64,000 bases of DNA. It comes from Candidatus Saganbacteria bacterium (lineage in GTDB: Bacteria; Margulisbacteria; WOR-1; XYC2-FULL-46-14; WPAF01). Shown here piece by piece: positions 12,801 through 37,573 of the stretch; position 1 is the first letter of the stretch; every line of letters starts with the position of its first letter. Location: positions 26,441-90,440 of the forward strand of contig JACRPM010000010.1 of NCBI GenBank assembly GCA_016223205.1. Reading direction: 5' to 3'. The position numbers and the translations under genes are program-made. The notes below the pieces were generated by a model. The model saw only the letters and a list, made by a program, of their open reading frames with translations. It made no database searches and was not told the origin of the DNA.

Positions 12801-15800
12801 CACGAATGATTTTCGGCTCTACTATGATTCTCCCAGCCGGGCAACGGCCGACGACGGCGGCAACCGGGGCAGGTATAGCGCTATCGGGACCAGCTCCGGA
12901 ATAACGGCCGAGTCCTATGTTTCGACCGCCGGCAATGATTCAACGGGTGACGGCAGTTTGTCTAATCCCTGGAAGACGGTGACCAAGGCGGTTTCTTCGA
13001 CCGAGGGAACGGTTTATGTGCGGGCCGGTAATTTCACCGCCAACGAGACCTTCCCCCTGGTCCTGACCGGCGGCCAAAAGGCGACCCGTTATCTTACCGA
13101 GTCGGCTTCGATCGATGCAACCGGGGCGGGCGCCAAGCATACTTTTATAACCGGATCGGCCGCCACCATAGAGTCGCTCACCCTGACCGCGAACAACACC
13201 AATGCCAGTTATTTCTCGATCTATTCCCTGGGCAATACCCACATCAAGAACAATACGCTTAACGCGGCGGTGAGCGGCGTATATCTCCGCGCAAATTACT
13301 GCACGGTCGAAGGCAACGCCATAACCATGAGCGGCTCCAGCGGTTATGGGGTAACCGTTCATGACAGCGGCGATTATTCGCTTATCCAAAACAACAGCAT
13401 AACCGCGAATGCCAGCGACGGCCGGGGGATCAGATTGGAAAATTATGCGGATAACATTACCGTAAGCGGGAATACCGTTGAAGCCCGGGCCTTTGGGATG
13501 GAGGTGGCCTCTTACAATAATAATTATAATATTACCAACAATATCTTGAGGGGGGCCGGGGTGGCGAGCTCTTACGGAATATATGCCAGTTACGTTTATA
13601 CCGGAAGCATTTCCTCGAATGAAGTGTCGAATTTTTACTACGGGATCCAGGCCGACTGTAATTCCGGCACCAGCACGATCTGGAACAATACCATCGTTAA
13701 TTTCACCACCGGCATTTACTCCTCGAACGGCGCCGCCAAGGTCATTAAAAACAATATCGTGAGCTCGTTGCCTACCTTCCCCTCGCTCCCGACCAGCGGG
13801 ACCAAAGGGATAGATCACATCGGGGGGACTACCACCCTAAAGAATAATGACATCTGGAACAATGAAACCAACTACAGCAACACCTCCGCCGGGACGGGCG
13901 ATATATCTCAAAATCCCAGATTTGTAAGCGCGGCGAGCAGCGATTTTCGCCTTTACAGCGATTCTCCCTGCGCCGCCGGCGGCGAAGGCGGGACCTATAT
14001 CGGGCGTTTCCCGGCGCTGGGAACTACTTCCGGCATAACCACGGAATCTTATGTGAGCGTGAGCGGAAATGATACGACCGGGAGCGGGACCCTAACCAGT
14101 CCCTGGAGGACCGTCACTAAAGGCTTGGGTTCAACGGAGGGGACGGTTTATGTAAGAGCGGGAACTTACACCGCGGGCGAGACCTTCCCCTTGGTCTTAC
14201 CTGCCGGAGAGCAGCTTAAAGGATATTTAACCGAAGCGGCGACCATCGATTGCACCGGGATTTCCGGAAAGAACACGGTGAACCTGGGAAGCAATACCAC
14301 CCTCGAAGGCCTGACGATCATCAACGCAGAAGGATCCGGCGCTTACCACACGATATATGCAGCTTCCTCCGGATCCCATATCAAGAACAATAAGATATAT
14401 CAAAATGGAGCGGCTTCGGGATCCTACGCCCTGTATCTAACGGCCGCCGCCGATCAATGCAGTATCGAAGGGAATACCATTCAGACCGGGAGCTCCAACG
14501 ATATAACGGTCTATCTGAGCAGTGGAGCGAATGATCCCATCATTAGGAACAACAACCTCACCGGAACAAAGTCCTCAAATTATGTCCTTTATTTCGCCGG
14601 CACCAGCAGCTCGCCGATCATTCAGAGCAACACCATAACCGGAACCTATTTCGGCATTTATCAGGGAGGAGCCCTAACCAATCAAGATCTAAGCAGCAAC
14701 AAGATCATCGCGACCGGATCCAATCATGTTTACGGAATATATATGGGATCGAATTCAACCGGCATCGTTTCCACCAATGAAGTGCGGGGCTGGAACGCCT
14801 ATTCTTATTCCTACGGCATCTGGGTGGGCGGCTTTAGCTCCAACCTGACCTTTAACAAGAATACGATCGTCAAATGCCAGACCGCTCTGGCTACCGGCGG
14901 CACCGCGAATATAACCAACAATATCATAGCGGGGGAGATCGGCGGTTTTTCTGGCTCCAATGTCAAGGGGATCGATAATGACAGCAGCGGCACGGTAACC
15001 TCGACTTACAACGACATTTATGCCAACGATATCACTTACGAAGGAACGGTGAGCAATAAAACCGGAGACCTGCAACAAAATCCTTTATTCGTCGACGCTG
15101 CCAATAACGATTACCATCTAACTTCGACTTCCCCCGCCATCGACGCCGGCGACCCGGCATCGCCGCACGATCCCGATGGTACGCGGGCGGACATGGGAGA
15201 ATACTATTTTAACCAGACCAATGACGCGCCCTCGGTTACCCTGCTCACTCCCAGCGGCGGCCAGAGCTTGACCGGCGGGGCCAGCTACAATATTACCTGG
15301 GCCGCCACCCAGCCGGCTTCGGGAGTGGATCATGTCGACATTTATTACTCCACCAACAGCGGATCGACCTATCCCAACCTGATCGTAGCCGGGACCTCCA
15401 ATGACGGCACTCATCCCTGGACCGTTCCCACCATCAATTCCACCACCGATAGGGTAAAAGTAATAGCGGTCTCGGGGGTAGGAGTTCTTGGCACCGGTGA
15501 AAGCAGTTCGGATTTTTCGATCACCACCGATTCCCAGGGTCCCACAGTCGAGGTTACTTCTCCGATCGGTGGGGAGTTGTGGAAGGGAGGGTCAACCCAC
15601 AATATCACCTTTACCGCGACCGATGAAGCCGGCCTTAAGGCCAATTCCCTTTATGCCTGGTATTCGACCAACGGAGGATCCACTTACCCTAATATCATAA
15701 CTAGTGAAGCCATCATTACTTCACCCTTCGTGTGGAATATCCCAGCCACGATCAATTCCCAGACGGTGCGGGTGCGTTTGAATATTTGGGATGCCTACAA

Positions 15801-18800
15801 CAATATCGGCACCGGGGAGAGTTCGGCAAGTTTTACTATCGATTCCACCCCTCCCACCGTTACCGTCCTGTCCCCGACGGGAGGGGATAAGTGGCAGGGT
15901 GGGACCAGCCACGACCTTACCTGGACCGCCACCGACAATTTTACACTGGAAGCTAATCCCATAACTCTCCAGTACTCGATTGATGCCGGAAGCAGCCGCA
16001 CCGACATTGCCACCGGGGAGGCAAATGACGGGAGCTATTCCTGGACAACGCTTTCCACCAACACCGATGAAGCGCGGATCAAGGTTTTGGCGCAGGATGT
16101 GTGCGGCAATATCGGCTCCGCCGAAAGCGCCAATTTCGTCATCGATTCCACGGCTCCAACGGCTCCGACCCTTTTAGCCCCGGCCAACGGATCAGCCACC
16201 GCCGAATCGCGGCCTCAATTAAGCTGGAATGCGGCAGTGGATTCCATCTCGGGGATCTCGAGTTACGAAGTGACCATCGATACCAACGTAGTAACCATCG
16301 ATGCCACCACCAGCTACACCACGCCGGACGCGCTTTCAGCCGCGGCGCACAGCTGGAAGGTGAAGGCCAAGAATGGCGTCGGTCTTTGGGGAGATTATTC
16401 GGAAACCTGGACCTTTACTACGGGTGTCGGCCCCAGTGCGGCGGGCATTGCGCTCAAAGATCGGGTCTATGGCAGTACCCAGTACTCCAACAGCTTGACC
16501 ATCTCGCTCGAAGTCCACGATGCGACCGGCTCGCCGACCCAAAGGCGAACTGCGCAGGATTCGGCATTTAGTGTCAATGACACCGGCTGGCTGACCTATG
16601 CCACCACCTCCGAATATACCTTTACCGCGGGGGAAGGCAGTCGCACGGCTTATTTTAAGATGCGCGACGCGTTCCAGAATGAAAGCGGCGCCTACAACGC
16701 CTCGATCGTAATCGATACCGTGCCGCCTTCACAGGTAACCCTGCTCACCCCGGCCAACAACAGTTATACCAACGACACCACACCGACATTCACTTGGAAT
16801 GCGGCCACGGACGCGACGAGCGGCGTGGCCAGCTATGAGGTGGTGATCGACACCACCCAGATCGCAACGGTCGGCGCGGTCACCACTTACACCACGCCCG
16901 ACGCCGAATCACAAGGACTGCACAACTGGAAGGCGCGCGCCAAGGACAACGCTCAAAATTGGGGGGAATATTCAACCACCTGGAATTTGACCGTTGAAAC
17001 CACCAATCCAACGGTAACTTTGGGCAAACCCAACGGCGGGGAAACCCTGGCTTCGGGCGCAAGCTACAGCATCACCTGGGAAGCGGCGGACAATTTCGGG
17101 TTAAAGACCGATCCCGTCACGCTCAACCTTTCAACCAACGGCGGAAGTTCTTGGTCCACCATCCAGGCCGGGATCTCCTACGTCACCGGCGAGGGGACCT
17201 ATTCCTGGACGGTGCCGTCGGTATCTTCCACCACCTGTCTGGTAAGCATCGAGGTGGAGGATAACGCCGGAAACAAGGGATACGACATCAGCAATTCAAC
17301 CTTTACCATCTCCAATACGCAGCCGACCGCTACGGTCACTTATCCCAACGGCGGGGAATACTTAAAAGGCGCGACCGCTTATAATATTACCTGGATCGCC
17401 ACAGGCGAGCCGGCTCCGGTCGCCATTAATCTGCGTTATTCGACCAACAGCGGATCGAGCTGGACGCTGATCGCCAGCAACGAAAGCAATGACGGAACTT
17501 ATGCCTGGACCACGCCTGCTATCGATTCTATAACCGATCGGGTCAGCGTCGAGGCGGTGGATGGTTTGGGGAGGGTGGGGACCGGGCAAAGCGCCGCGAA
17601 TTTTGCGATCGACAGTACTACTCCGGAAGTTGCGGTGGTCGCTCCAAGTGGCGGAGAACGGCTGGCGGGAGGGTCTTCCTATAATATCCAGTGGACCGCC
17701 ACAGACACAGTGGGCCTGCCGGCTAATCCCATCACGTTGAGATATTCAACCGATAGTGGAAGCAGTTGGACGCCCATCGCCGCTGCCCAACCCAACACGT
17801 CCCCCTATGCCTGGACGGTGCCGACGGTCAACTCCACCACCGTACGGGTAAGCGTCGAAGCGACCGATCGGGTCGGCTTTACCGGAACTGCCCAGAGCGC
17901 GTCGGATTTTATAATCGACAGCACCACTCCTACAGTACTGACGGTATCGCCCACCGACGGGGCGACCTCGGTTTCGATCAGCGCCACAGTGATCATCGTC
18001 TTCAGCAAGGAAATGAGCCGGGAAGCCACTCAAAACGCATTCTCGCTTTCCGCTTCGCCTGCGGTCTCGGGCGGTTTCTCCTGGAGCGGCGATGGTAAAA
18101 CCCTAACCTTCACTCCAGCTGCAGCTCTTGAATATAATACTCTTTATACGGTCGCGGTGGCCGCCGCGGCAACGGACCTGGCGGGCAACCATCTTACGGC
18201 TTTCTCCTCGAGCTTCACCACTGCGCCAAGAGGGGATTCCGAAGCGCCCCATATCATAATCCAAAGAGTAGATGCCCAAGGTGTGGCCAATACCCTGAAG
18301 GACGGGGATTATATTCCTAAACAGCCCAGGTTCAAAGGGGTCATAACCGATAATCTGGGAGTGAGCCGCGCCACCATCAAGTTCTACCTGGACGATGTGG
18401 AAACGGCGGCAACGATAACCGAGGTCTCTGTCACCAGATATGAAGTGGCTTACACGGTAACCTCCAATCTCGAAGGGGAGACAGTGAGGACTCATAGCGT
18501 TAAACTGGTCGCCAGCGATACTGCCGGTAATTCTACGACCCAGGAGATCACGGGACTTAAAGTTTCCTACGAATCAGGGAAAGTGATCGGCCCCGTGCTT
18601 ACTTATCCCACCACCTATAATCCGTTGACCGGCCAGCCGGCCCGCCTGGCTTACAATCTCACCGCCGACCAAGATGTGATGCTTTATATGCTGGATATCT
18701 CCGGACAAGTTGTCTGGACGGGCAAATATCCTTCGGGCGCCGAGGGCGGCAAGGCCGGCTATAACGAAATTCTCTTCTACGGCCGCTCCGAGATCTCCGG

Positions 18801-18885
18801 AACATTCCTCGGCAACGGCATCTATATCTACAAACTGGTGGCAGGCAATCGGGTCATCGGGACGGGAAGGTTGGCGATATTCTAA
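6859..18885 (+). CDS. Giant secreted surface protein (4008 aa): signal peptide, at least 5 right-handed parallel beta-helix modules, about 14 Ig/Fn3-like domains, T9SS-type (Por_Secre_tail / FlgD-Ig-like) C-terminal sorting domain
   Basis: Signal peptide MAKKIGLIILCLILLGTVAQA. Apparent TTG start overlapping the mutS stop. Repeated module ...NPRFVNPDGNDY(R/Q)LFSDSPCKNTASDGGNRGAYAAT..SGITTESYV..GDGTLGNPWKT(V/I)TKGLGSTEGTVYVRAGTY. PbH1-like NN(I/T)I repeats. Repeated PNGGE.W..G....ITW Ig-like domains. C-terminal ...YPTTYNPLTG...MLYMLDISGQVVWTGKY...GIYIYKLVAGNRVIGTGRLAIF. Confidence 0.85.
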   Translation: MAKKIGLIILCLILLGTVAQAADIYVDAVNGDNTRTTAEAQNPATPWKCITVAATGAAVGDTVHVAPGYYLTATGEAFPITITGRYFISTTTGLATIDSGTKIADAIHLGAGATLDGFTVLNAAPSNYYYDIYVPAANAHIRNCTLKQNSTAAQNRVIWVDAGGDRVSIEGNSLTTNTSNTSAVVTFTSGADNPIIRNNIIYGPGSQTTGIDFGTTVAPTVEGNTITVGYSGIVQTGTSTNQNILNNKVIAVGTNNNYGFYVGGTAATSITGTISGNEFRNWNNSAGSSGIRIENTNANYTISKNTLVKNTNGVRVGAGTATVRDNIISAGPRDGTYLSGSTGIYQSGGTITSTYNNLFNNITTYYGTVGSQSNDNTSNPRFVNPDGNDYRLFSDSPCKNTASDGGNRGAYAATDTTSGITTESYVDDGGSDVTGDGTLGNPWRTITKGLGSTEGTVYVRAGTYTAAKGETFPLAIGSGQKLINYLTEAATIDSSTTAINTVNLANNATLEGMTVNNSSNQSAVYLVGPDSQLINSTIYQAGSGGSGAAVYYASDADRCLLEGNTITGGSNSVAALYLLTGVDNPIVRNNTIVEQKTSSAYAIYFGGTSSYPTIEGNTITTGYNGIIQVGICTNQNILNNKIIGTGSNINAGIYFQTNSTGTVASNEVRGWSGTSGAGIYVSGSTANLTLNKNTLVKNTYGVQVTNGTVNIQNCIISAAPRGGTYLSASIGIYRTGGTVTSTYNDLFNNVVNYSGTVGSQSNDITTNPRFVNPDGNDYQLFSDSPCKNTASDGGNRGAYAATGVTSGITTESYVDDGGSDVTGDGTLGNPWKTVTKGLGSTEGTVYVRAGTYNTANGNTLPVSLAAGQTLKGYASEIATVEGNGSNHVVLIGSNATIDNIYLKLTGNYYGVYAGASNVNITRSKIIGNSQGSGIYFDGALTGVTPGGNITTCEVGAVDYGINLYGATSCGNITIEGNTIRDYDIWGIYIYWGQSGASNLVDIKRNILNNCNNASGTSYGGIYAWLHYTGTVNIINNTIVKNSLGIYAYRYSSTLNMNIRNNIISDTPRPDGGPRNGSYGLYKDQALSFISSYNNVWNQRTNFYGVSAGTGDISAYPRFVDPWNNNFDLYSDSPCIGTGSGGANIGAYEGAGAANSPYRTTSYVNNTTGVDAVTSGESVSNPYKTVTFANKYTLGTINVAASSNKYNSTNSETFPIDLGAGGGKRLSGADSGSVTLEGYGTDTHLVPGSSLVYGLGAFTSTTIEGITLQGMGNNTGVYFYGSNPIIQNSIIKGPLAGTGSSGKGVYFDGTNGASTGGTVSTCEITSLDYGIYFTGSTTCGNITIEGNDIHDNYQWGIYHYFWAPTSNANNFIDIKRNLIRNCLNTSTSYGGIYAWTYFVTLNVNRNTIVKNPIGIYAYRYDSYLTLIAKNNIVASEIGGFSVTGSKGILREGGTLTNTYNDVYSNDTNWSGVASGEGSISADALFVNATNNDFHLQQGSPAIDSGTPAGTDMGAYDYSSTTPTVTLGSPNGGETWGAGAWHNITWETTNTPDSINLYYITSEATGYQTIATGISDNGSYPWLVPNRATSTAKVSVEAVKAAETARDESAAYFTITAATNYYVDATNGNNAYSGITSEVSGTNGPWKTLTYASTQAAASSTTHVAAGTYNAALGESFPIAIANLNFISSASPTTLATIDAGSSNCITLGAAGYLAGFDLKSTTTDKVIYVTGASAYIVSNRMATSYSITSNYDIDVADAGDNILIQGNTIDSKRTNNIRLETGADNPIVKDNTLTTAQSYQTGIYVNWVTTRVTVEGNTIVADQGIYLGNSCSNIDIRTNVISPYSADSSAYKGMFLRGTGTVASNEVRGYKNYDTSNTAAIYIYDGTITVRNNTLVNNVVGVGNSYGTATIKNNIISAAPKLNSIYTDYGGGLVNSVGIWGRAGYTTNASYNNVFNNYANYSGSSITRSNELNTCPRFVNPDTNDFRLYYDSPSRATADDGGNRGRYSAIGTSSGITAESYVSTAGNDSTGDGSLSNPWKTVTKAVSSTEGTVYVRAGNFTANETFPLVLTGGQKATRYLTESASIDATGAGAKHTFITGSAATIESLTLTANNTNASYFSIYSLGNTHIKNNTLNAAVSGVYLRANYCTVEGNAITMSGSSGYGVTVHDSGDYSLIQNNSITANASDGRGIRLENYADNITVSGNTVEARAFGMEVASYNNNYNITNNILRGAGVASSYGIYASYVYTGSISSNEVSNFYYGIQADCNSGTSTIWNNTIVNFTTGIYSSNGAAKVIKNNIVSSLPTFPSLPTSGTKGIDHIGGTTTLKNNDIWNNETNYSNTSAGTGDISQNPRFVSAASSDFRLYSDSPCAAGGEGGTYIGRFPALGTTSGITTESYVSVSGNDTTGSGTLTSPWRTVTKGLGSTEGTVYVRAGTYTAGETFPLVLPAGEQLKGYLTEAATIDCTGISGKNTVNLGSNTTLEGLTIINAEGSGAYHTIYAASSGSHIKNNKIYQNGAASGSYALYLTAAADQCSIEGNTIQTGSSNDITVYLSSGANDPIIRNNNLTGTKSSNYVLYFAGTSSSPIIQSNTITGTYFGIYQGGALTNQDLSSNKIIATGSNHVYGIYMGSNSTGIVSTNEVRGWNAYSYSYGIWVGGFSSNLTFNKNTIVKCQTALATGGTANITNNIIAGEIGGFSGSNVKGIDNDSSGTVTSTYNDIYANDITYEGTVSNKTGDLQQNPLFVDAANNDYHLTSTSPAIDAGDPASPHDPDGTRADMGEYYFNQTNDAPSVTLLTPSGGQSLTGGASYNITWAATQPASGVDHVDIYYSTNSGSTYPNLIVAGTSNDGTHPWTVPTINSTTDRVKVIAVSGVGVLGTGESSSDFSITTDSQGPTVEVTSPIGGELWKGGSTHNITFTATDEAGLKANSLYAWYSTNGGSTYPNIITSEAIITSPFVWNIPATINSQTVRVRLNIWDAYNNIGTGESSASFTIDSTPPTVTVLSPTGGDKWQGGTSHDLTWTATDNFTLEANPITLQYSIDAGSSRTDIATGEANDGSYSWTTLSTNTDEARIKVLAQDVCGNIGSAESANFVIDSTAPTAPTLLAPANGSATAESRPQLSWNAAVDSISGISSYEVTIDTNVVTIDATTSYTTPDALSAAAHSWKVKAKNGVGLWGDYSETWTFTTGVGPSAAGIALKDRVYGSTQYSNSLTISLEVHDATGSPTQRRTAQDSAFSVNDTGWLTYATTSEYTFTAGEGSRTAYFKMRDAFQNESGAYNASIVIDTVPPSQVTLLTPANNSYTNDTTPTFTWNAATDATSGVASYEVVIDTTQIATVGAVTTYTTPDAESQGLHNWKARAKDNAQNWGEYSTTWNLTVETTNPTVTLGKPNGGETLASGASYSITWEAADNFGLKTDPVTLNLSTNGGSSWSTIQAGISYVTGEGTYSWTVPSVSSTTCLVSIEVEDNAGNKGYDISNSTFTISNTQPTATVTYPNGGEYLKGATAYNITWIATGEPAPVAINLRYSTNSGSSWTLIASNESNDGTYAWTTPAIDSITDRVSVEAVDGLGRVGTGQSAANFAIDSTTPEVAVVAPSGGERLAGGSSYNIQWTATDTVGLPANPITLRYSTDSGSSWTPIAAAQPNTSPYAWTVPTVNSTTVRVSVEATDRVGFTGTAQSASDFIIDSTTPTVLTVSPTDGATSVSISATVIIVFSKEMSREATQNAFSLSASPAVSGGFSWSGDGKTLTFTPAAALEYNTLYTVAVAAAATDLAGNHLTAFSSSFTTAPRGDSEAPHIIIQRVDAQGVANTLKDGDYIPKQPRFKGVITDNLGVSRATIKFYLDDVETAATITEVSVTRYEVAYTVTSNLEGETVRTHSVKLVASDTAGNSTTQEITGLKVSYESGKVIGPVLTYPTTYNPLTGQPARLAYNLTADQDVMLYMLDISGQVVWTGKYPSGAEGGKAGYNEILFYGRSEISGTFLGNGIYIYKLVAGNRVIGTGRLAIF

Positions 18886-27222: not shown

Positions 27223-28181
27223 AGAACCTAAAGTTGATCGTGATCGTTACCGCCGCGGTGGTTTTAATATTCGGCGCCTATTCGGTATTGTCACTTTTAT
27301 TGAGCATCGGCTCTAACGGCAAATCGGTGAAAGTAGAGATCAAGCCCGGCGCTTCCGCCTCGTCTATAGCTTATGACCTGGCCCAACAAAAAGTCATTAA
27401 AAGCGCCCGGGATTTTAAACTGGTCGCCTTTATTTTGGGGTCGTCAAACAAGTTCCAGGCGGGCCTTTATAAATTCAAGCCCCGTACGCCGCTCTATGAG
27501 GTGATCCTCAAGCTAAAGATGGGATCGATCATGGCGCCCGAGCCGCTCACGGTCACCTTCCCCGAAGGCGCCTCGATCTACAAGATGGGAAGCATTTTGG
27601 AGAAGGCCGGCATGCTGGATTTTAAGGATTTCCGCAAGCTTACCCGGGAAGAGGGCTATTTGTATCCGGATACTTATATTTTCGACAAGGAGATCACCGC
27701 GGAGGCCCTGGCCAATCTAATGCGGAAGAGGTTCAATGAAGTGGTCCTGCCTTACTGGGAGCAGAATAAAAAAGCGACCAAATACGATCTGCGCCAGATC
27801 CTGATCTTGGCTTCGATCATTGAGAAGGAGGCCGCGCAGGAGAAAGAACGCCCGATCATCTCTTCGGTATTTCATAATCGGTTAGACATCAAAATGGCGC
27901 TCGATTCCTGTTCAACCGTAAAGTATGCGCTGGAAAAACCTACCAAAGTCGTCTATTTCGATCAACTGAAATACCCTTCGCCTTACAATACTTATCTGCA
28001 TCGCGGCCTGCCTCCGGGGCCCATCTGTAATCCCGGTTTGGCTTCCATCAAAGCGGCCATCTATCCGGCTAAGACCAATTATTTATATTTTGTGGCCAAC
28101 CAGGACGGCTCGCATACTTTCTCCGCCACCTGGGCCGAGCATCAGAAAGCGAGGTTAAAAGTCCCTACTCCCACTCGATAG
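27219..28181 (+). CDS. mltG: Endolytic murein transglycosylase MltG (YceG family)
   Basis: N-terminal TM helix. YceG motifs YLYPDTYIF and YNTYLHRGLPPGPICNPG. A 4-nt overlap with ruvX. Confidence 0.8.
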   Translation: MKNLKLIVIVTAAVVLIFGAYSVLSLLLSIGSNGKSVKVEIKPGASASSIAYDLAQQKVIKSARDFKLVAFILGSSNKFQAGLYKFKPRTPLYEVILKLKMGSIMAPEPLTVTFPEGASIYKMGSILEKAGMLDFKDFRKLTREEGYLYPDTYIFDKEITAEALANLMRKRFNEVVLPYWEQNKKATKYDLRQILILASIIEKEAAQEKERPIISSVFHNRLDIKMALDSCSTVKYALEKPTKVVYFDQLKYPSPYNTYLHRGLPPGPICNPGLASIKAAIYPAKTNYLYFVANQDGSHTFSATWAEHQKARLKVPTPTR

Positions 28182-29718
28182 TGGAGGGCGGCTTGCTGCT
28201 GATATCGTAGACCACGCGGTTGACGGTGGGCGTTTCATTAACAATTCGATTAGCGATCGTATCCAATAGGTCATAAGGCAATCTGGCCCAATCGGCGGTC
28301 ATGGCGTCGGTTGAGGTCACCGCTCGGATGGCCACCGTATTCAAATAAGTTCTCTTGTCACCCATCACTCCTACGGTCCTGATAGGAAGAAGAACTCCGA
28401 ATGACTGCCAGACCTTCTTGTAAAAGCCGGCTTTCTTGACCTCGGAAACCACGATATCATCCACTTCTTGTAGGATCTTTACACGTTCCGGCGTTACTTC
28501 CCCGATAATGCGGATGGCGAGCCCCGGACCGGGGAACGGCTGGCGGCTGATGATATCTTCCGGAACCCCTAATTCCCTGCCCAACGCTCTAACCTCGTCC
28601 TTGAAAAGTTTTTTAAGCGGCTCCACCAGTTTGAATTTAATATCTTTAGGTAATCCGCCCACATTATGGTGGGTCTTGATGCGCACCGCGGTGGTGGAGG
28701 TGAGGCCCGGCACCGCAGATTCGATCACATCCGGGTAAAGTGTTCCCTGCGCCAGATATGGCATCTTGCCGAGCTTTTTAGCTTCTTCCTCAAAGACCCG
28801 GATGAACTCGTTGCCGATGCGGTGGCGTTTTTCTTCGGGATCGGTAACCCCGCTAAGCTTGTTATAGAACCTTTGGCTGGCGTCGATATGGACGAACTTT
28901 ATCTTGAACCTGGTGGTGAAGATGTCGTTTATCTTTTTGGCCTCGTTCTTGCGCATAAAACCCTGGTCGATGAACATGCAGGTGAGCTGTTTGCCCACGG
29001 CCTTGCTTACCAGAGCGGAGACAGTGGTCGAATCCACCCCGCCCGAAAGCGCGCAGAGGATCTTTTCCTTGCCTACGGTTGCCTTGATCTCTTTGATCGA
29101 TTCCTCAACGAAATTCTTGGTGGTCCAGGTGGGCTTACAGCCGCAGACCACATAAACGAAGTTCTTGATGATCTCAACCCCCGATTCGGTATGCGCCACT
29201 TCGGGATGGAATTGGACGCCGTATAGCTTTTCTTTGGGGTTGCCGATGGCGGCCAGGGGAGTATTTTTGGTGTGGGCCAAGACCTTAAAACCCTTAGGGA
29301 GCTTTACCACGGAATCCCCATGGCTCATCCAGCAGGTCAGATGGTTGGGGAGCCCCGCAAAAAGATTGGTCTCATCATCCACCAAAAGTTCGGTTCGTCC
29401 GTATTCCTTCTTTTTTTCGGGTTTAACCACACCCCCGAGGGCTTTGGCGATCAATTGAGTGCCGTAGCAGATCCCCAAAATGGGTATTCCGGATCTTAAT
29501 AGATTAGGATCGGGGTAGGGGGCGCCTTTGTCGTAAACGGAGGCGGGTCCGCCTGAAATTATGATCCCTTTGACTTTGCGTCGTTTCAGTTCACTTACTG
29601 TGACATTATGAGGCAGGATCTCGCAGTAAACATTGCACTCCCTAACCCGCCGGGCGATGAGCATGGCATACTGCGCCCCAAAATCAAGAACGGCGACCAG
29701 GTCGTGCTTAATGGCCAT
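28165..29718 (-). CDS. guaA: GMP synthase (glutamine-hydrolysing)
   Basis: 517 aa. Class I glutamine amidotransferase domain plus ATP-PPase SGGVDS motif. C-terminal ...PPSTIEWE. Confidence 0.95.
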   Translation of the reverse strand: MAIKHDLVAVLDFGAQYAMLIARRVRECNVYCEILPHNVTVSELKRRKVKGIIISGGPASVYDKGAPYPDPNLLRSGIPILGICYGTQLIAKALGGVVKPEKKKEYGRTELLVDDETNLFAGLPNHLTCWMSHGDSVVKLPKGFKVLAHTKNTPLAAIGNPKEKLYGVQFHPEVAHTESGVEIIKNFVYVVCGCKPTWTTKNFVEESIKEIKATVGKEKILCALSGGVDSTTVSALVSKAVGKQLTCMFIDQGFMRKNEAKKINDIFTTRFKIKFVHIDASQRFYNKLSGVTDPEEKRHRIGNEFIRVFEEEAKKLGKMPYLAQGTLYPDVIESAVPGLTSTTAVRIKTHHNVGGLPKDIKFKLVEPLKKLFKDEVRALGRELGVPEDIISRQPFPGPGLAIRIIGEVTPERVKILQEVDDIVVSEVKKAGFYKKVWQSFGVLLPIRTVGVMGDKRTYLNTVAIRAVTSTDAMTADWARLPYDLLDTIANRIVNETPTVNRVVYDISSKPPSTIEWE

Positions 29719-29724
29719 ATCAAA

Positions 29725-30540
29725 TTATATCATAATAGCGAAATATTTATCGATCGCGCCGACAAAGTAATCTTTCTTGAAATATTCCGCCTCTTCTTTT
29801 TTTTCAAGAAAGAATTGAACGTCGCTCAAGAGACGGGGGAAATTGATCCGGTCGATCCTGCCAAGAAGAAGTTCTTTGGTTTGGGGGCCGTCCAGGTCAA
29901 AATTCTTTCCTTCCGTCTGCGCCGCCGCGTTCGACAATAGCTTGTAATTGATGGGGGTCTTGCGGGTCAAAAACCAGAGCAGATCGTAATAATCCCGGCC
30001 TTTATCATATTTTCTAAACAAGACGGCGTGCAATTTGGAGGCGAACAGGGAATCCGGCTTATAGCAGTTCACTTTGAACAGGAAATTCTTGTTTACCAGC
30101 ACGACTTCGGTTTGATAGCCCCGCGGAGGATTCGAATCTATCTCCAGTTTAATGAACAGTTTTTCGCTCTTTAGTTGAGATAGGCCAAGCTCGTATAACA
30201 GCCCCTTGAAGCGAATGAATTCGCTTAAAACGGTTTTATCCTTGGCTTTCGCCTCCTCCACGGAATAACCGGTTAATTCCAGCTCTTTTTTAGCCGTTTT
30301 GAGAAGCGCGCTAAAATCAAATCCTTTTTTATTAATCAGTGAGAAATCAAGGTCCTCTGAAAATCGCGGCATATCATAAAGAATTCTTAGGGCAGTTCCC
30401 CCGACAAAAGCGAAGTTCTTGAAATAGCCCTTCCTATCCAGGATCTGAAGGATCAGTTCCTGCAGATATTCCCTGGTGAAATTATATTTTTCTTCGTTCG
30501 ATCCCAGGCCTTCAAGTTTTTTCAGCAATATTTCTTTCAT
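29725..30540 (-). CDS. abiEii: AbiEii/AbiGii-family nucleotidyltransferase toxin (type IV toxin-antitoxin / abortive infection)
   Basis: DUF1814 hallmark FVGGTALRILYDMPRFSEDLDFSL. 271 aa. A 4-nt overlap with the upstream AbiEi gene. Confidence 0.75.
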   Translation of the reverse strand: MKEILLKKLEGLGSNEEKYNFTREYLQELILQILDRKGYFKNFAFVGGTALRILYDMPRFSEDLDFSLINKKGFDFSALLKTAKKELELTGYSVEEAKAKDKTVLSEFIRFKGLLYELGLSQLKSEKLFIKLEIDSNPPRGYQTEVVLVNKNFLFKVNCYKPDSLFASKLHAVLFRKYDKGRDYYDLLWFLTRKTPINYKLLSNAAAQTEGKNFDLDGPQTKELLLGRIDRINFPRLLSDVQFFLEKKEEAEYFKKDYFVGAIDKYFAIMI

Positions 30541-31151
30541 TTAAACTGCCCAAGGACTCGATCTAATTTTTTTATATTGAAGCGCCGGGCATATGAAAAA
30601 AGCTTCTTTTTATTCAGGATGGATATATTTTGAAGGCGGAGCGACTGATTGAAATATCCCTTTTTTTTCGGATCGATCTTTCCTAAATTAAGATAGAGAT
30701 AATCAAGCAGGGCTTTTTCCGGCTCGGCAATAAAATAGGGATAGCCCGACTCGTCCTTTTTAGCCATAAAGCCGAAATAGAGCGGGGTTTTTATATGGCG
30801 GTAAACAAAACCGCCTTCCTGGTTGGTGAAGGTCCGGGTCTTGCGGGTCGAAACCGAAGTCACCCTGGTCACTTTTTCCGGGATCATCTTGTAACTGCTT
30901 AAGGCGGATTCGAGGCTGATATAAGAGGGCTGGTAGATGCTGGCGGCCGCCACTTCTTTGGAAAGAGGCGTTTGCATCTCGCTTTTTCCAAGCGTATAAA
31001 GGCCCCTTTTCAATTCCAACAGAAGCCCCTGCTTTTTCCAGCGGGAAAGCTGGTTCCTCATCGTCTTCGGAGAGAGGGAGAAGATCTCCGCAACGTCGCT
31101 TCCGAAGAAGGGCAGCTTTTTGACTTTTTCTTTAAATTCCCTGAAATTCAT
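30537..31151 (-). CDS. abiEi: AbiEi-family antitoxin / transcriptional autoregulator
   Basis: N-terminal winged-HTH region with a conserved RGLY motif (LKRGLYTL). 204 aa. Immediately upstream of the AbiEii gene. Confidence 0.7.
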   Translation of the reverse strand: MNFREFKEKVKKLPFFGSDVAEIFSLSPKTMRNQLSRWKKQGLLLELKRGLYTLGKSEMQTPLSKEVAAASIYQPSYISLESALSSYKMIPEKVTRVTSVSTRKTRTFTNQEGGFVYRHIKTPLYFGFMAKKDESGYPYFIAEPEKALLDYLYLNLGKIDPKKKGYFNQSLRLQNISILNKKKLFSYARRFNIKKLDRVLGQFK

Positions 31152-31164
31152 GTCGTTTCCTTAA

Positions 31165-31225
31165 ATAATCATAAATGATTATATGTGGAAATAATAGCAG
31201 GTAGAGATCGGTTGTCAAGGCCCAA
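31165..31225 (-). promoter_or_regulatory. Promoter (TTGACA-N16-TATTAT on the minus strand) plus perfect palindromic operator ATAATCAT-TT-ATGATTAT (31165-31182) upstream of abiEi
   Basis: -35 and -10 hexamers read on the minus strand. The 8-bp-arm palindrome sits between the -10 element and the AAGGAAA ribosome-binding site. AbiEi proteins are known to autoregulate via inverted repeats. Confidence 0.4.
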
Positions 31226-31237
31226 GGGGGGGATTTA

Positions 31238-32398
31238 TTACTTATACATCCCCAACTGCTGGGCTTTCTGATAAACCTTGCCTTCGGTAAGGAGCGAAGG
31301 GGCGATGACCACTTCCACCTGCTGCATTTCCTTGAGATTAGCAGCGCCCAGGGTGCCCATCGAGGTCCTTAGCGCTCCTGCCAGGTTCATGGAGCCGTCA
31401 TCATATTTAGCCGGGCCTAAAAGTATTTCCTTAAGCGTCCCGATCGTTCCAACTTTGATCCTGGAGCCGCGGGGCAGCAGTGGGGAAGGGGTGGCCATCC
31501 CCCAGTGGAAGCCCTTGCCGGGAGCTTCTTCCGCCTTGGCGATGGGGGAGCCCATCATTACCAGGTCGGCTCCGCAGGCGATGCATTTGCAGACATCTCC
31601 GCCGGTGACCAGCCCCCCATCGGCGATGATGGGGACATATTTACCGTTTTCCTTATAATAAGAATCGCGGGCGGCAGCGCAATCAGAGATAGCGGTTGCC
31701 ATAGGAACGCCGACGCCCAATACTCCGCGAGAAGTACAGGCGGCGCCGGGGCCAATGCCCACCAGCACCCCGGCTACCCCGGTCCCCATCAAGGTCAAAG
31801 CCACTTCATAGGTGACACAGTTGCCCACCAAAACCGGGATCCCCATCATTTGGCAGAATTCAGCCAGGTGCAGGGGCTCGCTGCTCTTGGATTTATGCTT
31901 GGTGGAGATGACGGTGGATTGCAGGACGAACATGTCCACCCCGGCTTTTTTGGTTATCGGGCCCAGCCAGGCGGCATCCTGGGGGATAGAGGAGACCGCG
32001 CATTTGGCTTTGGCGGCTTTGATTTCCTTGATGCGTTTGGTCACCAGCTCTTCCTTAATAGGTTCAAGATAAAGTTTTTGCATCAGCGGCACATATTCGT
32101 CCTTGCTTACTTTAGATATCTGTTCGAGCTGGGCTTCGGCGTTTTCGTACCTGGTCCAAAGGCCCTGCAGGTTCAAGACCCCCAAACCGCCATATTGGCT
32201 CATTAAAATGGCGGTCTGGGGGCTAACCACCCCGTCCATGGCGGAGGCGATGATCGGGATCGCCAGCTTGTAATTGCCCAAATTGGCGCTGATATCGGTA
32301 TCGTCCGGATTGATGGTGATAATGCTGGGACAAAGCGCGATCTCATCCAGTCCGTAAGTCCGGCGGGTCTTTTTACCTTTTCCCAGTTCAATTTCCAT
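31238..32398 (-). CDS. guaB: IMP dehydrogenase family protein (CBS-domain-less form)
   Basis: 386 aa TIM-barrel. Catalytic loop GIGPGAACTSRGVLGVG. No CBS pair. Lies upstream of guaA, with the AbiE pair inserted between them. Confidence 0.7.
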   Translation of the reverse strand: MEIELGKGKKTRRTYGLDEIALCPSIITINPDDTDISANLGNYKLAIPIIASAMDGVVSPQTAILMSQYGGLGVLNLQGLWTRYENAEAQLEQISKVSKDEYVPLMQKLYLEPIKEELVTKRIKEIKAAKAKCAVSSIPQDAAWLGPITKKAGVDMFVLQSTVISTKHKSKSSEPLHLAEFCQMMGIPVLVGNCVTYEVALTLMGTGVAGVLVGIGPGAACTSRGVLGVGVPMATAISDCAAARDSYYKENGKYVPIIADGGLVTGGDVCKCIACGADLVMMGSPIAKAEEAPGKGFHWGMATPSPLLPRGSRIKVGTIGTLKEILLGPAKYDDGSMNLAGALRTSMGTLGAANLKEMQQVEVVIAPSLLTEGKVYQKAQQLGMYK

Positions 32399-32401
32399 TT
32401 T

Positions 32402-33460
32402 TTACTCCTGTGGCCTTTCCCCGATCTTGCCGCCCAGATTCAAGTTTTTCCCATCGCGGTATATCATAAAAGTTATCCGGTCGCCGGGCTTCTTGCCGGC
32501 GACGAGCTTTTGGATATCTTCACTGGCCTTGATCTTTTGGCCGTCGACTTCTTTGACCAGGTCATACTGCTTGATGCCGATCTTTTCAGCCGGGCCGTCT
32601 TTTATGACCTCGGTAATGACCACGCCTTCGGCCAGCGGCAGGTCCAGATAGGCCTTGATCTTTTCGTCCACATTGCGCATATAGATCCCCAGCCAGGGGC
32701 GGATCACTTTACCTTTGTTTATCAGGTCTTCTTTTATCTCGCGGGCTTCATCGATGGGGATGGCAAACCCGATGCCCTGGGCCTGGGCCACGATGGCCAC
32801 ATTGATGCCGATGACCTTCCCGTCCAGGTCGATCAGGGGACCGCCGGAATTGCCGGGATTGATGGCGGCATCGGTCTGGATAAGGTCTTTTTTCCCTAAT
32901 TCTCCCAGTGTCCGGCCGATGGCGCTGACGATGCCGGCCGTCACCGTGTTGCTGAACCCATAAGGATTGCCGATGGCGATCACCCATTCTCCTACTCTTA
33001 TCCGGCTTGAATCCCCCATGGTTAGAACCGGCAGGTTGTGAGCATCGACTTTAACTACCGCAACATCTAAAGTAGAGTCGGAGCCGACCACCTTGCCGTC
33101 AAATGAGCGGCCGTCCTTTAGGGTGACCTTGATCTTATCCGCGCCCTTGACCACATGGGCGTTAGTGAAGATATAGCCCTCTTTATCTATAATGAAACCG
33201 GAGCCCGCTCCCTTAAGCGGGACCATGCGGTCCTCAAAGTAGCGTTTGAACTCCGGGTCCATCTCAAAGCCGAAGCCGAAATCGAAATCCTTGAAAGGAT
33301 TAAAGATGCGCTGGCGCTCCATCTTGACCACATCGATATTGACCACCGCGGGGCCTACCTGCTCCACGATATCGGCTATCATAATCGGCAGCTGGGCGAG
33401 CGAGGGGCAGGCGCACAGAAAATAAAAAAGGGCTCCTAAGATCGCAATTCTTTTTGCCAT
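32402..33460 (-). CDS. htrA: HtrA/DegP-family periplasmic serine protease with one PDZ domain
   Basis: Signal peptide. Catalytic triad context TNAHVV ... D ... GNSGGPLIDLDGKVIGIN. C-terminal PDZ domain. Confidence 0.85.
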   Translation of the reverse strand: MAKRIAILGALFYFLCACPSLAQLPIMIADIVEQVGPAVVNIDVVKMERQRIFNPFKDFDFGFGFEMDPEFKRYFEDRMVPLKGAGSGFIIDKEGYIFTNAHVVKGADKIKVTLKDGRSFDGKVVGSDSTLDVAVVKVDAHNLPVLTMGDSSRIRVGEWVIAIGNPYGFSNTVTAGIVSAIGRTLGELGKKDLIQTDAAINPGNSGGPLIDLDGKVIGINVAIVAQAQGIGFAIPIDEAREIKEDLINKGKVIRPWLGIYMRNVDEKIKAYLDLPLAEGVVITEVIKDGPAEKIGIKQYDLVKEVDGQKIKASEDIQKLVAGKKPGDRITFMIYRDGKNLNLGGKIGERPQE

Positions 33461-35789: not shown

Positions 35790-35858
35790 ATGACCATGCC
35801 AAAGACCATCGTCATCATGCCCGCCTATAACGCCGAGAAGATATTAAAAAATGAATAA
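35790..35858 (+). pseudogene. Orphan 5' fragment of the GT2 glycosyltransferase gene (MTMPKTIVIMPAYNAEKILKNE*), displaced by insertion of the DUF1016 gene
   Basis: 33 nt TCGTCATCATGCCCGCCTATAACGCCGAGAAGA are identical at 35808-35840 and 36887-36919. The fragment carries the ATG start and first 17 codons of the gene that continues at 36872. Confidence 0.55.
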
Positions 35859-36879
35859 AAAAATCAGCAAAGAGAGCAAGTATCATAAACTGATAGATTC
35901 GATTGGGGCGCTTCTGCAACAGGCGCGACAAAAAGCGTTTCAGCAGATTAATAATTTAATCGTGAAAACCTATTGGGAAATCGGCAGGTATATAGTAGTT
36001 TATGAGCAGGAAAACAAGGTTAAAGCGGAATATGGCTCGAAATTGCTGGACAAAATCGCTTATGATCTGAAAGGGAGATACGGGAAGGGTTTTAGCCGAA
36101 GCAATGTCGTATACATGAGATTGCTGTATCTTAAATACCCCAAAAGTCAGACACTGTCTGACCAATTGAGCTGGAGTCATTACGTTGAGCTGTTGGGGGT
36201 TTCAGATGATCTGGCTCGCTCTTTTTATGAAAAAGAATGTCTTGTTAACCGCTGGAGCGTAAGAGAGCTGGAAAGACAAATTAATTCTATGCTTTTTGAG
36301 CGTCTGGCACTAAGCAAAGACAAGCAAGGCGTGCTGGCGCTGGCTGCCAAGGGCCACAAAATAGAGAAAGCCGAGGACGTAGTCAAAAACCCATATATTC
36401 TGGAATTTCTGGGTATACCGGAAGATTATCGCTATTCCGAAAAAGAGCTCGAACAAAAAGTCATCGATAATATGCAAAACTTCTTGCTTGAGCTGGGTAA
36501 AGGATTTACTTTCGTGGCGCGCCAGTATCGCCTCACATTAAACAATAAGCATTTCCATGTTGACCTGGTTTTTTATCATCGGATTTTGAAATGCTTTGTT
36601 TTGATCGATCTAAAACTGGGAGCGATTACCCATTATGATATAGGGCAAATGAATATGTATCTAAATTATTTCAAGAAAGAAGAAATGGCCGAAGATGATA
36701 ATGAGCCGATAGGTATTGTTTTAGGCGCCGAGAAGAAGCATATTTTGGTTGAATATGCTTTAGGCGGAATTTCCAACAAACTTTTCGCTTCAAAATACCA
36801 GCTATCACTGCCCAACAAATATCTTTTGCAGAAAGCGGTCGAAAATATTATAACTCGCGAGAAAAAACACCGTGCTTAA
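35851..36879 (+). CDS. PDDEXK-nuclease-fold protein, DUF1016 / YhcG family
   Basis: 342 aa. Core FHVDLVFYHRILKCFVLIDLKLG (D...D/ExK-like) typical of YhcG. Lies inside a roughly 1.05 kb insertion bounded by the 33-bp direct repeats. Confidence 0.7.
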   Translation: MNKKISKESKYHKLIDSIGALLQQARQKAFQQINNLIVKTYWEIGRYIVVYEQENKVKAEYGSKLLDKIAYDLKGRYGKGFSRSNVVYMRLLYLKYPKSQTLSDQLSWSHYVELLGVSDDLARSFYEKECLVNRWSVRELERQINSMLFERLALSKDKQGVLALAAKGHKIEKAEDVVKNPYILEFLGIPEDYRYSEKELEQKVIDNMQNFLLELGKGFTFVARQYRLTLNNKHFHVDLVFYHRILKCFVLIDLKLGAITHYDIGQMNMYLNYFKKEEMAEDDNEPIGIVLGAEKKHILVEYALGGISNKLFASKYQLSLPNKYLLQKAVENIITREKKHRA

Positions 36880-37573
36880 AACAGTCGTCATCATGCCCGC
36901 CTATAACGCCGAGAAGACACTGGAAAAGACCTACCGGGATATCCCCAAGGACCAGGTCTCCGAGATCATTTTGGGGGATGATTGTTCACAGGACAAAACA
37001 ATTGAAATCGCCGAAAAGTTGGGCATTCGCGTCCTTAAAACCCCGCACAACCTGGGTTACGGCGGCAACCAGAAAATGCTGTATCGGGAAGCCCTCAAGA
37101 GGGGAGCGGATGTGATCGTGATGGTGCATCCCGACTGGCAGTACGATGCCACTAAAATTCCGGAGATGGTCGCGCCCATTGCGGCCGGAGAAAAAGACGT
37201 TATGATGGGCTCGAGGGTGCTGGGCGGGGGGACGCTGGCGGGGGGCATGCCCATCTGGAAATACATCAGCAACCGCTTCCTCACCTGGTGTGAGAATATG
37301 ACTTTTCGTCTTGATCTTTCCGAATACCACACCGGCTTCCGCGCTTTTTCCCGCAAGGTATTGGAAACCATCCCTTTTGAGAAGAATTCCAACGATTTTG
37401 TCTTTGACACCGAGGTTCTGGCGGAGGCGGCCCGGAAAAAATTCAGGGCCGGGGAGATCGCAGTACCCTGCCGCTATTTTTCCGAGGCCTCGGAGATCAA
37501 TTTTGTCCGCAGTTCGGTCTACGGTCTGCAGACCTTATGGGTATGTCTTAAGTATTGGTTGAATCTCATATGA
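36872..37573 (+). CDS. Family 2 glycosyltransferase (polyprenyl-phosphate sugar transferase-like)
   Basis: VVIMPAYNAEKTL...GDDCSQDKT GT-A DxD context. 233 aa. The current GTG start lies inside the inserted DUF1016 element. Confidence 0.8.
   Translation: MLKTVVIMPAYNAEKTLEKTYRDIPKDQVSEIILGDDCSQDKTIEIAEKLGIRVLKTPHNLGYGGNQKMLYREALKRGADVIVMVHPDWQYDATKIPEMVAPIAAGEKDVMMGSRVLGGGTLAGGMPIWKYISNRFLTWCENMTFRLDLSEYHTGFRAFSRKVLETIPFEKNSNDFVFDTEVLAEAARKKFRAGEIAVPCRYFSEASEINFVRSSVYGLQTLWVCLKYWLNLI

Follow-up and report, generated by a model that had tools for sequence, protein, structure and literature searches.

AbiE toxin-antitoxin pairs combine an AbiEi antitoxin with a DUF1814 nucleotidyltransferase (NTase) toxin, AbiEii, and the closest described systems are known from Streptococcus agalactiae, Mycobacterium tuberculosis and Helicobacter pylori. 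The toxicity of S. agalactiae AbiEii needs the NTase motifs I (hGG/S), II (R..DhD), III (KLxAxxxR) and IV, an acidic residue after motif III (PMC3985639). This toxin, like MenT1, MenT3 and MenT4, adds nucleotides to the 3' ends of transfer RNA (tRNA) and stops translation, and antitoxins of the AbiEi type bind their toxin, which is thereby induced to phosphorylate itself, with T65 serving as the phosphoacceptor of S. agalactiae AbiEii (bioRxiv 10.64898/2026.01.19.700257). AbiEi and its M. tuberculosis relative Rv2827c also repress their own promoters via inverted repeats (PMC3985639; PMC7319586). Here we describe a pair of this kind in 64,000 nucleotides of a Candidatus Saganbacteria contig (JACRPM010000010.1), hereafter the window, where abiEi and abiEii stand between guaB3 and guaA. 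In all probability, this is an intact, horizontally acquired AbiE cassette (COG5340-type AbiEi and DUF1814 AbiEii), which arrived by a single insertion, in the ancestor that its carriers share, at the TAATG common to guaB3 and guaA.

The four genes are arranged head to tail on the minus strand, as follows:

31238..32398, minus strand: guaB3, a Bateman-less IMP dehydrogenase of the GuaB3 family, the upstream neighbour of the cassette
30537..31151, minus strand: abiEi, putative antitoxin and autorepressor by analogy, 204 amino acids; winged helix-turn-helix at the N-terminus, antitoxin domain at the C-terminus
29725..30540, minus strand: abiEii, DUF1814 nucleotidyltransferase, 271 amino acids, presumed toxic by analogy
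28165..29718, minus strand: guaA, glutamine-hydrolysing GMP synthase, full length, the downstream neighbour of the cassette

The guaB3-guaA operon leads from inosine monophosphate (IMP) through xanthosine monophosphate (XMP) to guanosine monophosphate (GMP). The guaB3 stop and the abiEi ATG are separated by 86 nt, and the abiEii stop and the guaA ATG by 6 nt. A first-pass annotation of the window had already placed an AbiEi/AbiEii pair between a guaB-like gene and guaA on the same strand, and the four open reading frames (ORFs) and their family matches bear this out. It had further proposed that the module landed inside a housekeeping operon and that synteny in related genomes would be the way to check this. 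That comparison supports insertion, together with the base composition of the insert and the scattered contexts of its homologues. Ten contigs of relatives are without AbiE genes, and on these guaB3 and guaA either overlap (TAATG or ATGA) or lie 11-30 nt apart. Among the close relatives, whose GuaB3 proteins are 94% (L180), 93% (L181 and L182), 89% (L183), 94% (L184) and 93% (L185) identical to that of the window, the start of guaA falls within the guaB3 stop or immediately at it (ATGA or TAATG), and in the more distant Margulisbacteria L001, L003, L004 and L048 guaA directly follows guaB3. The stop and start take the form TAATG in L181, L001 and L003, and ATGA in L180 and L183. In those close relatives with long enough contigs, the surrounding htrA-guaB3-guaA-yceG-ruvX-alaS neighbourhood is that of the window.

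The boundaries of the inserted DNA can be placed closely by comparison with these empty sites and with other AbiE cassettes:

31219..31237, minus strand: left junction, the 19 nt TAAATCCCCCCCTTGGGCC that separate the guaB3 stop from the -35 box, with no counterpart in empty-site relatives or in other AbiE cassettes
29710..29739, minus strand: right junction, composed of the AIMI* codons (29739-29725), the spacer TTTGAT (29724-29719) and ATG GCC ATT (29718-29710)

The match to the empty-site relatives breaks off at 31234-31242 and is taken up again at 29712. The cassettes are homologous to one another from the -35 box as far as the AbiEii codons for ...KYF, after which each homologue has 0-4 variable residues; the AIMI* tail of the window's AbiEii is lineage-specific. 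The right junction reads ATGGCCATT-AAGCAC. The ancestral sequence ...TATAAGTAATGAAGCACGAC... has been interrupted inside the TAATG overlap in such a way that the guaB3 stop codon is retained, and the former guaA ATG is now ATT. The guaA start has moved six bases upstream, to ATG GCC ATT AAG, which derives from the right flank of the insert, and the GuaA N-terminus reads MAIKHD, a two-residue extension, versus MKHD in five close relatives. An essential downstream gene has, in other words, recruited a new start codon from inserted DNA.

A foreign origin of this segment is indicated by its composition and by its relatives. The G+C content of the 1519-bp insert is 43.7%, versus 53.0 +/- 2.8% for equal-sized windows, which places it among the lowest 0.3%. 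The closest cassette homologues are 72-78% identical and occur in unrelated contexts. They come from the chromosome of a member of the Deltaproteobacteria, from a further Saganbacteria contig and from metagenome contigs that are unbinned, and their neighbours are MNT/HEPN, HicAB, an additional AbiE pair or a two-component operon. Genes for gua functions flank none of 97 AbiEi-related loci, and AbiEii is encoded downstream in 87 of them. The contigs of the closest homologues often carry, no more than a few kb away, an additional AbiEi/AbiEii pair that is divergent (L087 7101-8412; L088 1461-2991) or another toxin-antitoxin pair (MNT/HEPN in L082, HicAB in L089), which means that in those genomes the cassette sits within toxin-antitoxin clusters. 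A scan of viral contigs found AbiEi relatives of 33-38% identity only, and thus gave no evidence for a phage donor.

A four-gene arrangement conserved across relatives, which the first-pass annotation had named as the pattern that would speak for an ancient configuration, was not what we found, as L179 (Logan SRR6490205) is the sole other carrier; L081 is the window's own sequence from another assembly. The GuaB3 of L179 is 96% identical to that of the window (87% nucleotide identity), and its contig, which ends inside abiEi, has in common with the window the 19-nt left junction, the promoter and an abiEi that is 92.5% identical in DNA. The window and L179 group as sisters when a guaB3 tree is built by neighbour joining. 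The ratio of nonsynonymous to synonymous substitution rates (dN/dS) between the two is 0.13 for abiEi (dS 0.27), 0.05 for guaB3 and 0.19 for htrA, and the abiEi value indicates that the antitoxin has been under purifying selection since insertion. The identical left junction and the selected abiEi in L179 point to a single insertion that was subsequently inherited. Because two lineages that are about 11% diverged in DNA carry it, the insertion is not very recent.

The toxin gene is the more readily recognized of the two. AbiEii matches Pfam PF08843 with 105.3 bits (cut-off 22.5) and the PADLOC AbiEii model at 3.9e-71, and is publicly annotated as AbiEii/AbiGii. Its residues G47 and G48 (motif I), R59, D63 and D65 (motif II), and K169, L170, A172 and R176 (motif III) are invariant in 34 homologues. 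The candidate residues for motif IV are R182, D183, Y185 and D186, of which D183 is kept in at least 90% of the same homologues and the others are invariant. S61, which is also invariant, lies two residues ahead of the first catalytic Asp and is by its position, matching T65 of S. agalactiae AbiEii, a candidate phosphoacceptor. The AlphaFold (AF2) model of AbiEii has a predicted local distance difference test score (pLDDT) of 92.7, and its best folds in the PDB are the DUF1814 proteins JHP933 (4o8s/4ok0) and TglT/MenT3 Rv1045 (6j7n), with E values of 1e-7 to 3e-7. A sequence profile also finds JHP933 (E 5e-4), and a single-sequence search of the PDB gave no match.

The antitoxin is named just 'hypothetical protein HZC35_06465' in GenBank, and many of its homologues (for example P0138, P0143 and P0147) are likewise unnamed. 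AbiEi matches the PADLOC AbiEi models end to end (1.3e-56), and its AF2 model (pLDDT 90.5) has a single significant Foldseek match in the PDB, S. agalactiae AbiEi 6y8q (E 6.8e-7; template modelling (TM) score 0.53-0.55 over 206 columns, 16% identity). abiEi precedes abiEii, with 4 nt common to both genes (ATGA, 30537-30540), and both ORFs are full length relative to their homologues. Every defining feature of an AbiE system that can be looked for in sequence is present at this locus.

The pair also carries its own regulatory region, in which three elements can be distinguished:

31191..31218, minus strand: abiE promoter, with -35 TTGACA (31218-31213), a 16-nt spacer and an extended -10 TGcTATTAT (31199-31191)
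31165-31182, minus strand: palindrome core, a perfect 8-2-8, ATAATCAT-TT-ATGATTAT
31156..31191, minus strand: putative operator dyad, 36 bp, an imperfect 17-2-17, TTTCCACATATAATCAT-TT-ATGATTATTTAAGGAAA

The promoter that the first-pass annotation had assigned to the pair is of the sigma-70 type and matches the consensus at 11 of 12 positions, with the -10 hexamer at 31196-31191. In homologous cassettes of unrelated contexts, a -35 TTGAC[AC] and a -10 TAT[TC]AT recur at constant distance from the ATG. The operator-like palindrome of the same annotation stood as to its perfect 8-2-8 core and had to be widened, as the conserved and covarying dyad extends over about 36 bp and not 18. The palindrome occurs once in the window at up to 2 mismatches (0.02 expected by chance), and since further operator copies are absent from the window at this threshold, there is no sign of AbiEi regulating other genes there. 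The dyad is complementary at 14 of 17 positions, which none of 200 shuffles reached, and from the final base of the -10 box it reaches into the Shine-Dalgarno sequence AAGGAAA (31162-31156), which forms part of the right arm. The layout is common to homologous cassettes, in the order -35, -10, TTTC, core, GAAA and ATG, with equal spacing to the ATG. Upstream regions of 63 different kinds were compared, from cassettes with an AbiEi identity to the window's protein of 33-100%, and the best dyad is mostly centred 17-22 nt ahead of the ATG; the outer TTTC and GAAA are retained, and the inner core varies by subfamily and remains symmetric. A formal count of covariation in 19 aligned homologous operators found 84.8% of symmetric cells complementary, versus 34-57% when the partner was slid by 1-3 columns. 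Both sides vary in 9 of the 17 dyad pairs, and at half-site position 3 the pair is C/G in nine operators, A/T in eight and T/A in two, with no operator unpaired. In L179 the corresponding region (2699-2785, equivalent to window 31152-31237) has an asymmetric core, ATCATCAT-TT-ATGATTAT, a one-step intermediate between the symmetric family types ATCATCAT/ATGATGAT and ATAATCAT/ATGATTAT. Because the dyad is conserved and covaries symmetrically, and given the precedent of AbiEi and Rv2827c, we read it as the operator that AbiEi would bind by analogy. The family TTTC-N-core-NN-core-N-GAAA from the 63 regions offers a ready panel for how AbiEi proteins read their operators.

To judge by the homologous systems of S. 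agalactiae and M. tuberculosis, a bicistronic abiEi-abiEii mRNA would be made from the promoter that the cassette itself carries, and AbiEi on the 36-bp dyad would repress its own operon. The AbiEii nucleotidyltransferase would add nucleotides to tRNA 3' ends and block translation, and the C-terminal domain of AbiEi would neutralise it, probably by binding and by induced auto-phosphorylation of Ser61. If the supply of antitoxin were lost, e.g. through phage infection or loss of the cassette, the toxin would be freed. As for guaA, its transcripts would have to arise either by read-through, initiated at the abiE promoter and those further upstream, or at the promoter-like TGATATAAT. Minus-strand terminator-like sites are absent between guaB3 and abiEi and between abiEii and guaA, and read-through of all four genes is accordingly the simplest expectation; the two minus-strand terminator hits are both internal to guaB3, and in total such hits are about as many as chance would give. 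No Shine-Dalgarno sequence precedes guaA. The putative promoter TCGATA-18-TGATATAAT (29753-29724, minus strand) at the end of abiEii matches the consensus at 10 of 12 positions plus TG, and its extended -10-like part, TGATATAAT, consists of the AbiEii tail and the spacer and ends 6 nt ahead of the guaA ATG. Promoter-like sites in the region are near chance frequency (5 found, 3.0 +/- 2.0 expected). If TGATATAAT were active, the guaA mRNA would be leaderless.

Several observations weigh against an intact cassette that was inserted once and inherited. The end of the L179 contig inside abiEi leaves abiEii and the right junction outside the comparison of the two carriers, and the guaB3 of L179 is equally similar to that of the empty-site L184 (87.3%) and that of the window (87.3%); the filled allele may have spread by homologous recombination instead of strict vertical descent. 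The 1519 bp contain no recombinase, and neither direct or inverted repeats nor a target duplication of at least 10 nt was found at both borders, where the dinucleotide AT is the only shared sequence. AbiEi scores below curated cut-offs (Pfam AbiEi_4, 21.5 versus 25; NCBIfam TAA_AbiEi NF047376, 44 versus 150), a single-sequence search of the PDB with it gave chance hits only and a profile search nothing meaningful, and its assignment therefore depends on its predicted fold and on the PADLOC models. For this pair, a toxic effect, binding to DNA and a part in defence would all carry over by analogy. Moreover, S. agalactiae AbiE gave E. coli no protection against 32 coliphages, so that a role in defence is possible and not to be assumed.

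Other accounts of the locus were weighed against the same evidence. Were the four-gene operon ancestral, with the AbiE pair cleanly lost from relatives and not gained here, an arrangement common to two lineages would be expected. Such a history needs repeated precise deletions, however, each restoring the overlapping stop and start and the MKHD N-terminus, and it does not sit well with carriers that form one small clade in the guaB3 tree, with a G+C content foreign to the window or with homologous cassettes dispersed over unrelated contexts; on synteny and junction sequences we rejected the idea, which we regard as extremely improbable. It is hardly credible, too, that the palindrome acts as a hairpin in the 5' untranslated region, affecting translation or stability, and not as a protein-binding DNA operator. 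An RNA helix would likewise show dyad symmetry and compensatory changes, and the right arm does extend to the Shine-Dalgarno sequence, but the predicted fold (-3.4 kcal/mol, z -0.48) is no better than that of shuffles, and the outer left arm TTTCC, which is conserved, directly adjoins the -10 box and would precede the transcription start or coincide with it. Asymmetric operators (L088, L089) carry C-A oppositions, which would be unpaired in RNA, besides T-G ones, no Rfam family scored above threshold (the sole hit was snoR80, 27 bits versus 45, E 0.09), and promoter inverted repeats are bound experimentally by AbiEi-family proteins (PMC3985639, PMC7319586). Decay presents a different case, since chromosomal toxin-antitoxin modules often decay and abiEii lies beyond the carrier comparison. 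Yet both ORFs are full length with every invariant catalytic residue kept, the promoter and operator are intact and nearly identical in L179, abiEi evolves at the low dN/dS given above and both structure models are confident, all of which makes an inactive relic that is no longer a toxin-antitoxin system very unlikely.

Two further proposals concern what the cassette now does for guaA. In one, the cassette, or its promoter, operator and 3' end, would now mainly serve guaA and tie GMP synthesis to the state of the toxin-antitoxin pair: operator-bound AbiEi would be a roadblock or throttle on guaB3 transcripts, and guaA would rely on re-initiation from abiEii across 6 nt or on the TGATATAAT promoter. 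The terminator-free minus strand at both borders, the start codon of guaA in insert-derived sequence 6 nt past the abiEii stop, the extended -10-like element built from the lineage-specific AbiEii tail 6 nt ahead of the ATG, and the binding of guanosine triphosphate (GTP) by S. agalactiae AbiEii (PMC3985639) are all consistent with such co-option. All of this could follow passively from the landing place, though; the promoter-like match is 10 of 12 only, at a near-chance frequency of such sites, none of the 97 other cassettes is associated with gua genes, and the toxin motifs are all intact, suggesting ordinary toxin-antitoxin function, so that we consider this co-option distinctly unlikely. 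Entrenchment by operon capture, in which the cassette, having landed between two essential and translationally coupled genes, supplies the guaA start and possibly a promoter or re-initiation, such that GMP synthase output would depend on or be modulated by the transcription or translation of the selfish toxin-antitoxin module or by AbiEi occupancy, is a tentative idea that we rate as unlikely. If true, loss of the cassette would need precise repair, and the module would be stabilised by a means other than post-segregational killing. The location of the cassette allows guaA expression to depend on it and does not show that it does.

The flanking genes clarify what kind of operon received the cassette. 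The guaA product matches NF000848 with 790.8 bits (cut-off 400). The guaB-like label given to the upstream gene in the first-pass annotation was right as to an IMP dehydrogenase (IMPDH) relationship, in that the ORF passes TIGR01304 (505 bits, cut-off 342), and needs correction as to type, with a score of 146.9 on the canonical IMPDH model TIGR01302 (cut-off 481.5). The 386-amino-acid protein has a Pfam IMPDH match at 1.5e-49, keeps the catalytic Cys loop GPGAACTS and shows no CBS/Bateman domain among its Pfam matches; the upstream gene is of the Bateman-less GuaB3 type and not canonical GuaB. The Margulisbacteria/Saganbacteria are the sister group of the cyanobacteria; the genomes that match the window best are Margulisiibacteriota MAGs, and proteins identical to its own are deposited under Candidatus Saganbacteria bacterium. 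The window's GuaB3 is 62-67% identical to cyanobacterial GuaB3, whereas guaA was not found within 7 kb of guaB3 in about 70 cyanobacterial loci (L006-L080), and among the loci compared the tight, overlapping guaB3-guaA operon occurs only in Margulisbacteria/Saganbacteria. In the cyanobacterium Synechococcus elongatus, GuaB3 is the essential IMPDH (PMC13273366).

Further features of the region were observed alongside these. In L005, a more distantly related member of the Margulisiibacteriota, the GuaB3 of which is 69% identical, a different insert of about 700 nt occupies the guaB3/guaA junction (3341-4047) and holds a 201-amino-acid ORF (3359-3964, minus strand) on the opposite strand and with no Pfam match; the guaB3/guaA junction may be a recurrent insertion spot. 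An HtrA-like protease gene (32402-33460) lies between a DUF7479 zinc-ribbon gene and guaB3 in the window, in L005 and in L179-L183; in L001 (332-376) the HtrA-like gene is absent and the DUF7479 gene directly precedes guaB3. The plus strand at 6859-18885 is a single very long ORF of 4008 amino acids. A second low-G+C stretch at 35800-37000 (0.38-0.45 versus 0.53 for the window), with ORFs at 35851-36879 and 36872-37573, may be another acquired segment.

Set beside the described systems, the Saganbacteria pair is similar in organization to the AbiE of S. agalactiae V/R 2603, in which the antitoxin gene likewise comes first with a 4-nt overlap with the toxin gene (PMC3985639). The two share the same two-domain AbiEi fold (6y8q, Foldseek E 7e-7), a DUF1814 toxin with NTase motifs I-IV, a promoter region with inverted repeats, and a Ser/Thr placed two residues ahead of the first catalytic Asp, namely S61 in the window and T65 in S. 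agalactiae (bioRxiv 10.64898/2026.01.19.700257). They differ in that the structural alignment gives the AbiEi proteins an identity of only 16%, no PDB chain being matched by the sequence of the window's AbiEi, and in that S. agalactiae has two 23-bp repeats 3 bp apart that include the -35 (PMC3985639), whereas here one 17-2-17 dyad is situated between the -10 and the start codon. The S. agalactiae system resides on an integrative conjugative element, and the present one on a Saganbacteria chromosome in a guaB3-guaA operon. The M. tuberculosis systems MenAT3/TglT-TakA (Rv1045-Rv1044) and MenAT4 (Rv2826c-Rv2827c) also pair a DUF1814 toxin with a COG5340 antitoxin, and their toxins act by tRNA 3' nucleotide addition under phosphorylation control. 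The predicted AbiEii fold matches TglT/MenT3 6j7n (E 3e-7) at 12-14% identity in the fold alignment. Autoregulation of Rv2827c is via promoter inverted repeats as well (PMC7319586), in that case four 23-bp repeats with negative cooperativity, in contrast to the single dyad here. H. pylori JHP933 (4o8s, 4ok0) is the best structural match to the toxin (TM 0.54-0.68) and the best profile match (E 5e-4), with GG...RFSEDLDF and KxRDxxDL motifs that align with the window's AbiEii, and differs in being a plasticity-zone protein.

The cassette belongs to an ordinary kind of element, of which it is a well documented case, and the understanding of AbiE is unchanged by it. Nothing relevant came up in a search of the literature on toxin-antitoxin modules located within housekeeping operons. 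The unusual aspect of the present cassette is its location, at the coupling point of an essential two-gene operon the second gene of which had its start codon replaced. The locus provides a natural before-and-after case, in which the same site is either empty or filled with a 1.5-kb cassette among relatives whose GuaB3 proteins are 89-96% identical to that of the window. It shows that a minimal cassette, reaching from promoter to stop, can enter such a coupling point and persist under purifying selection.

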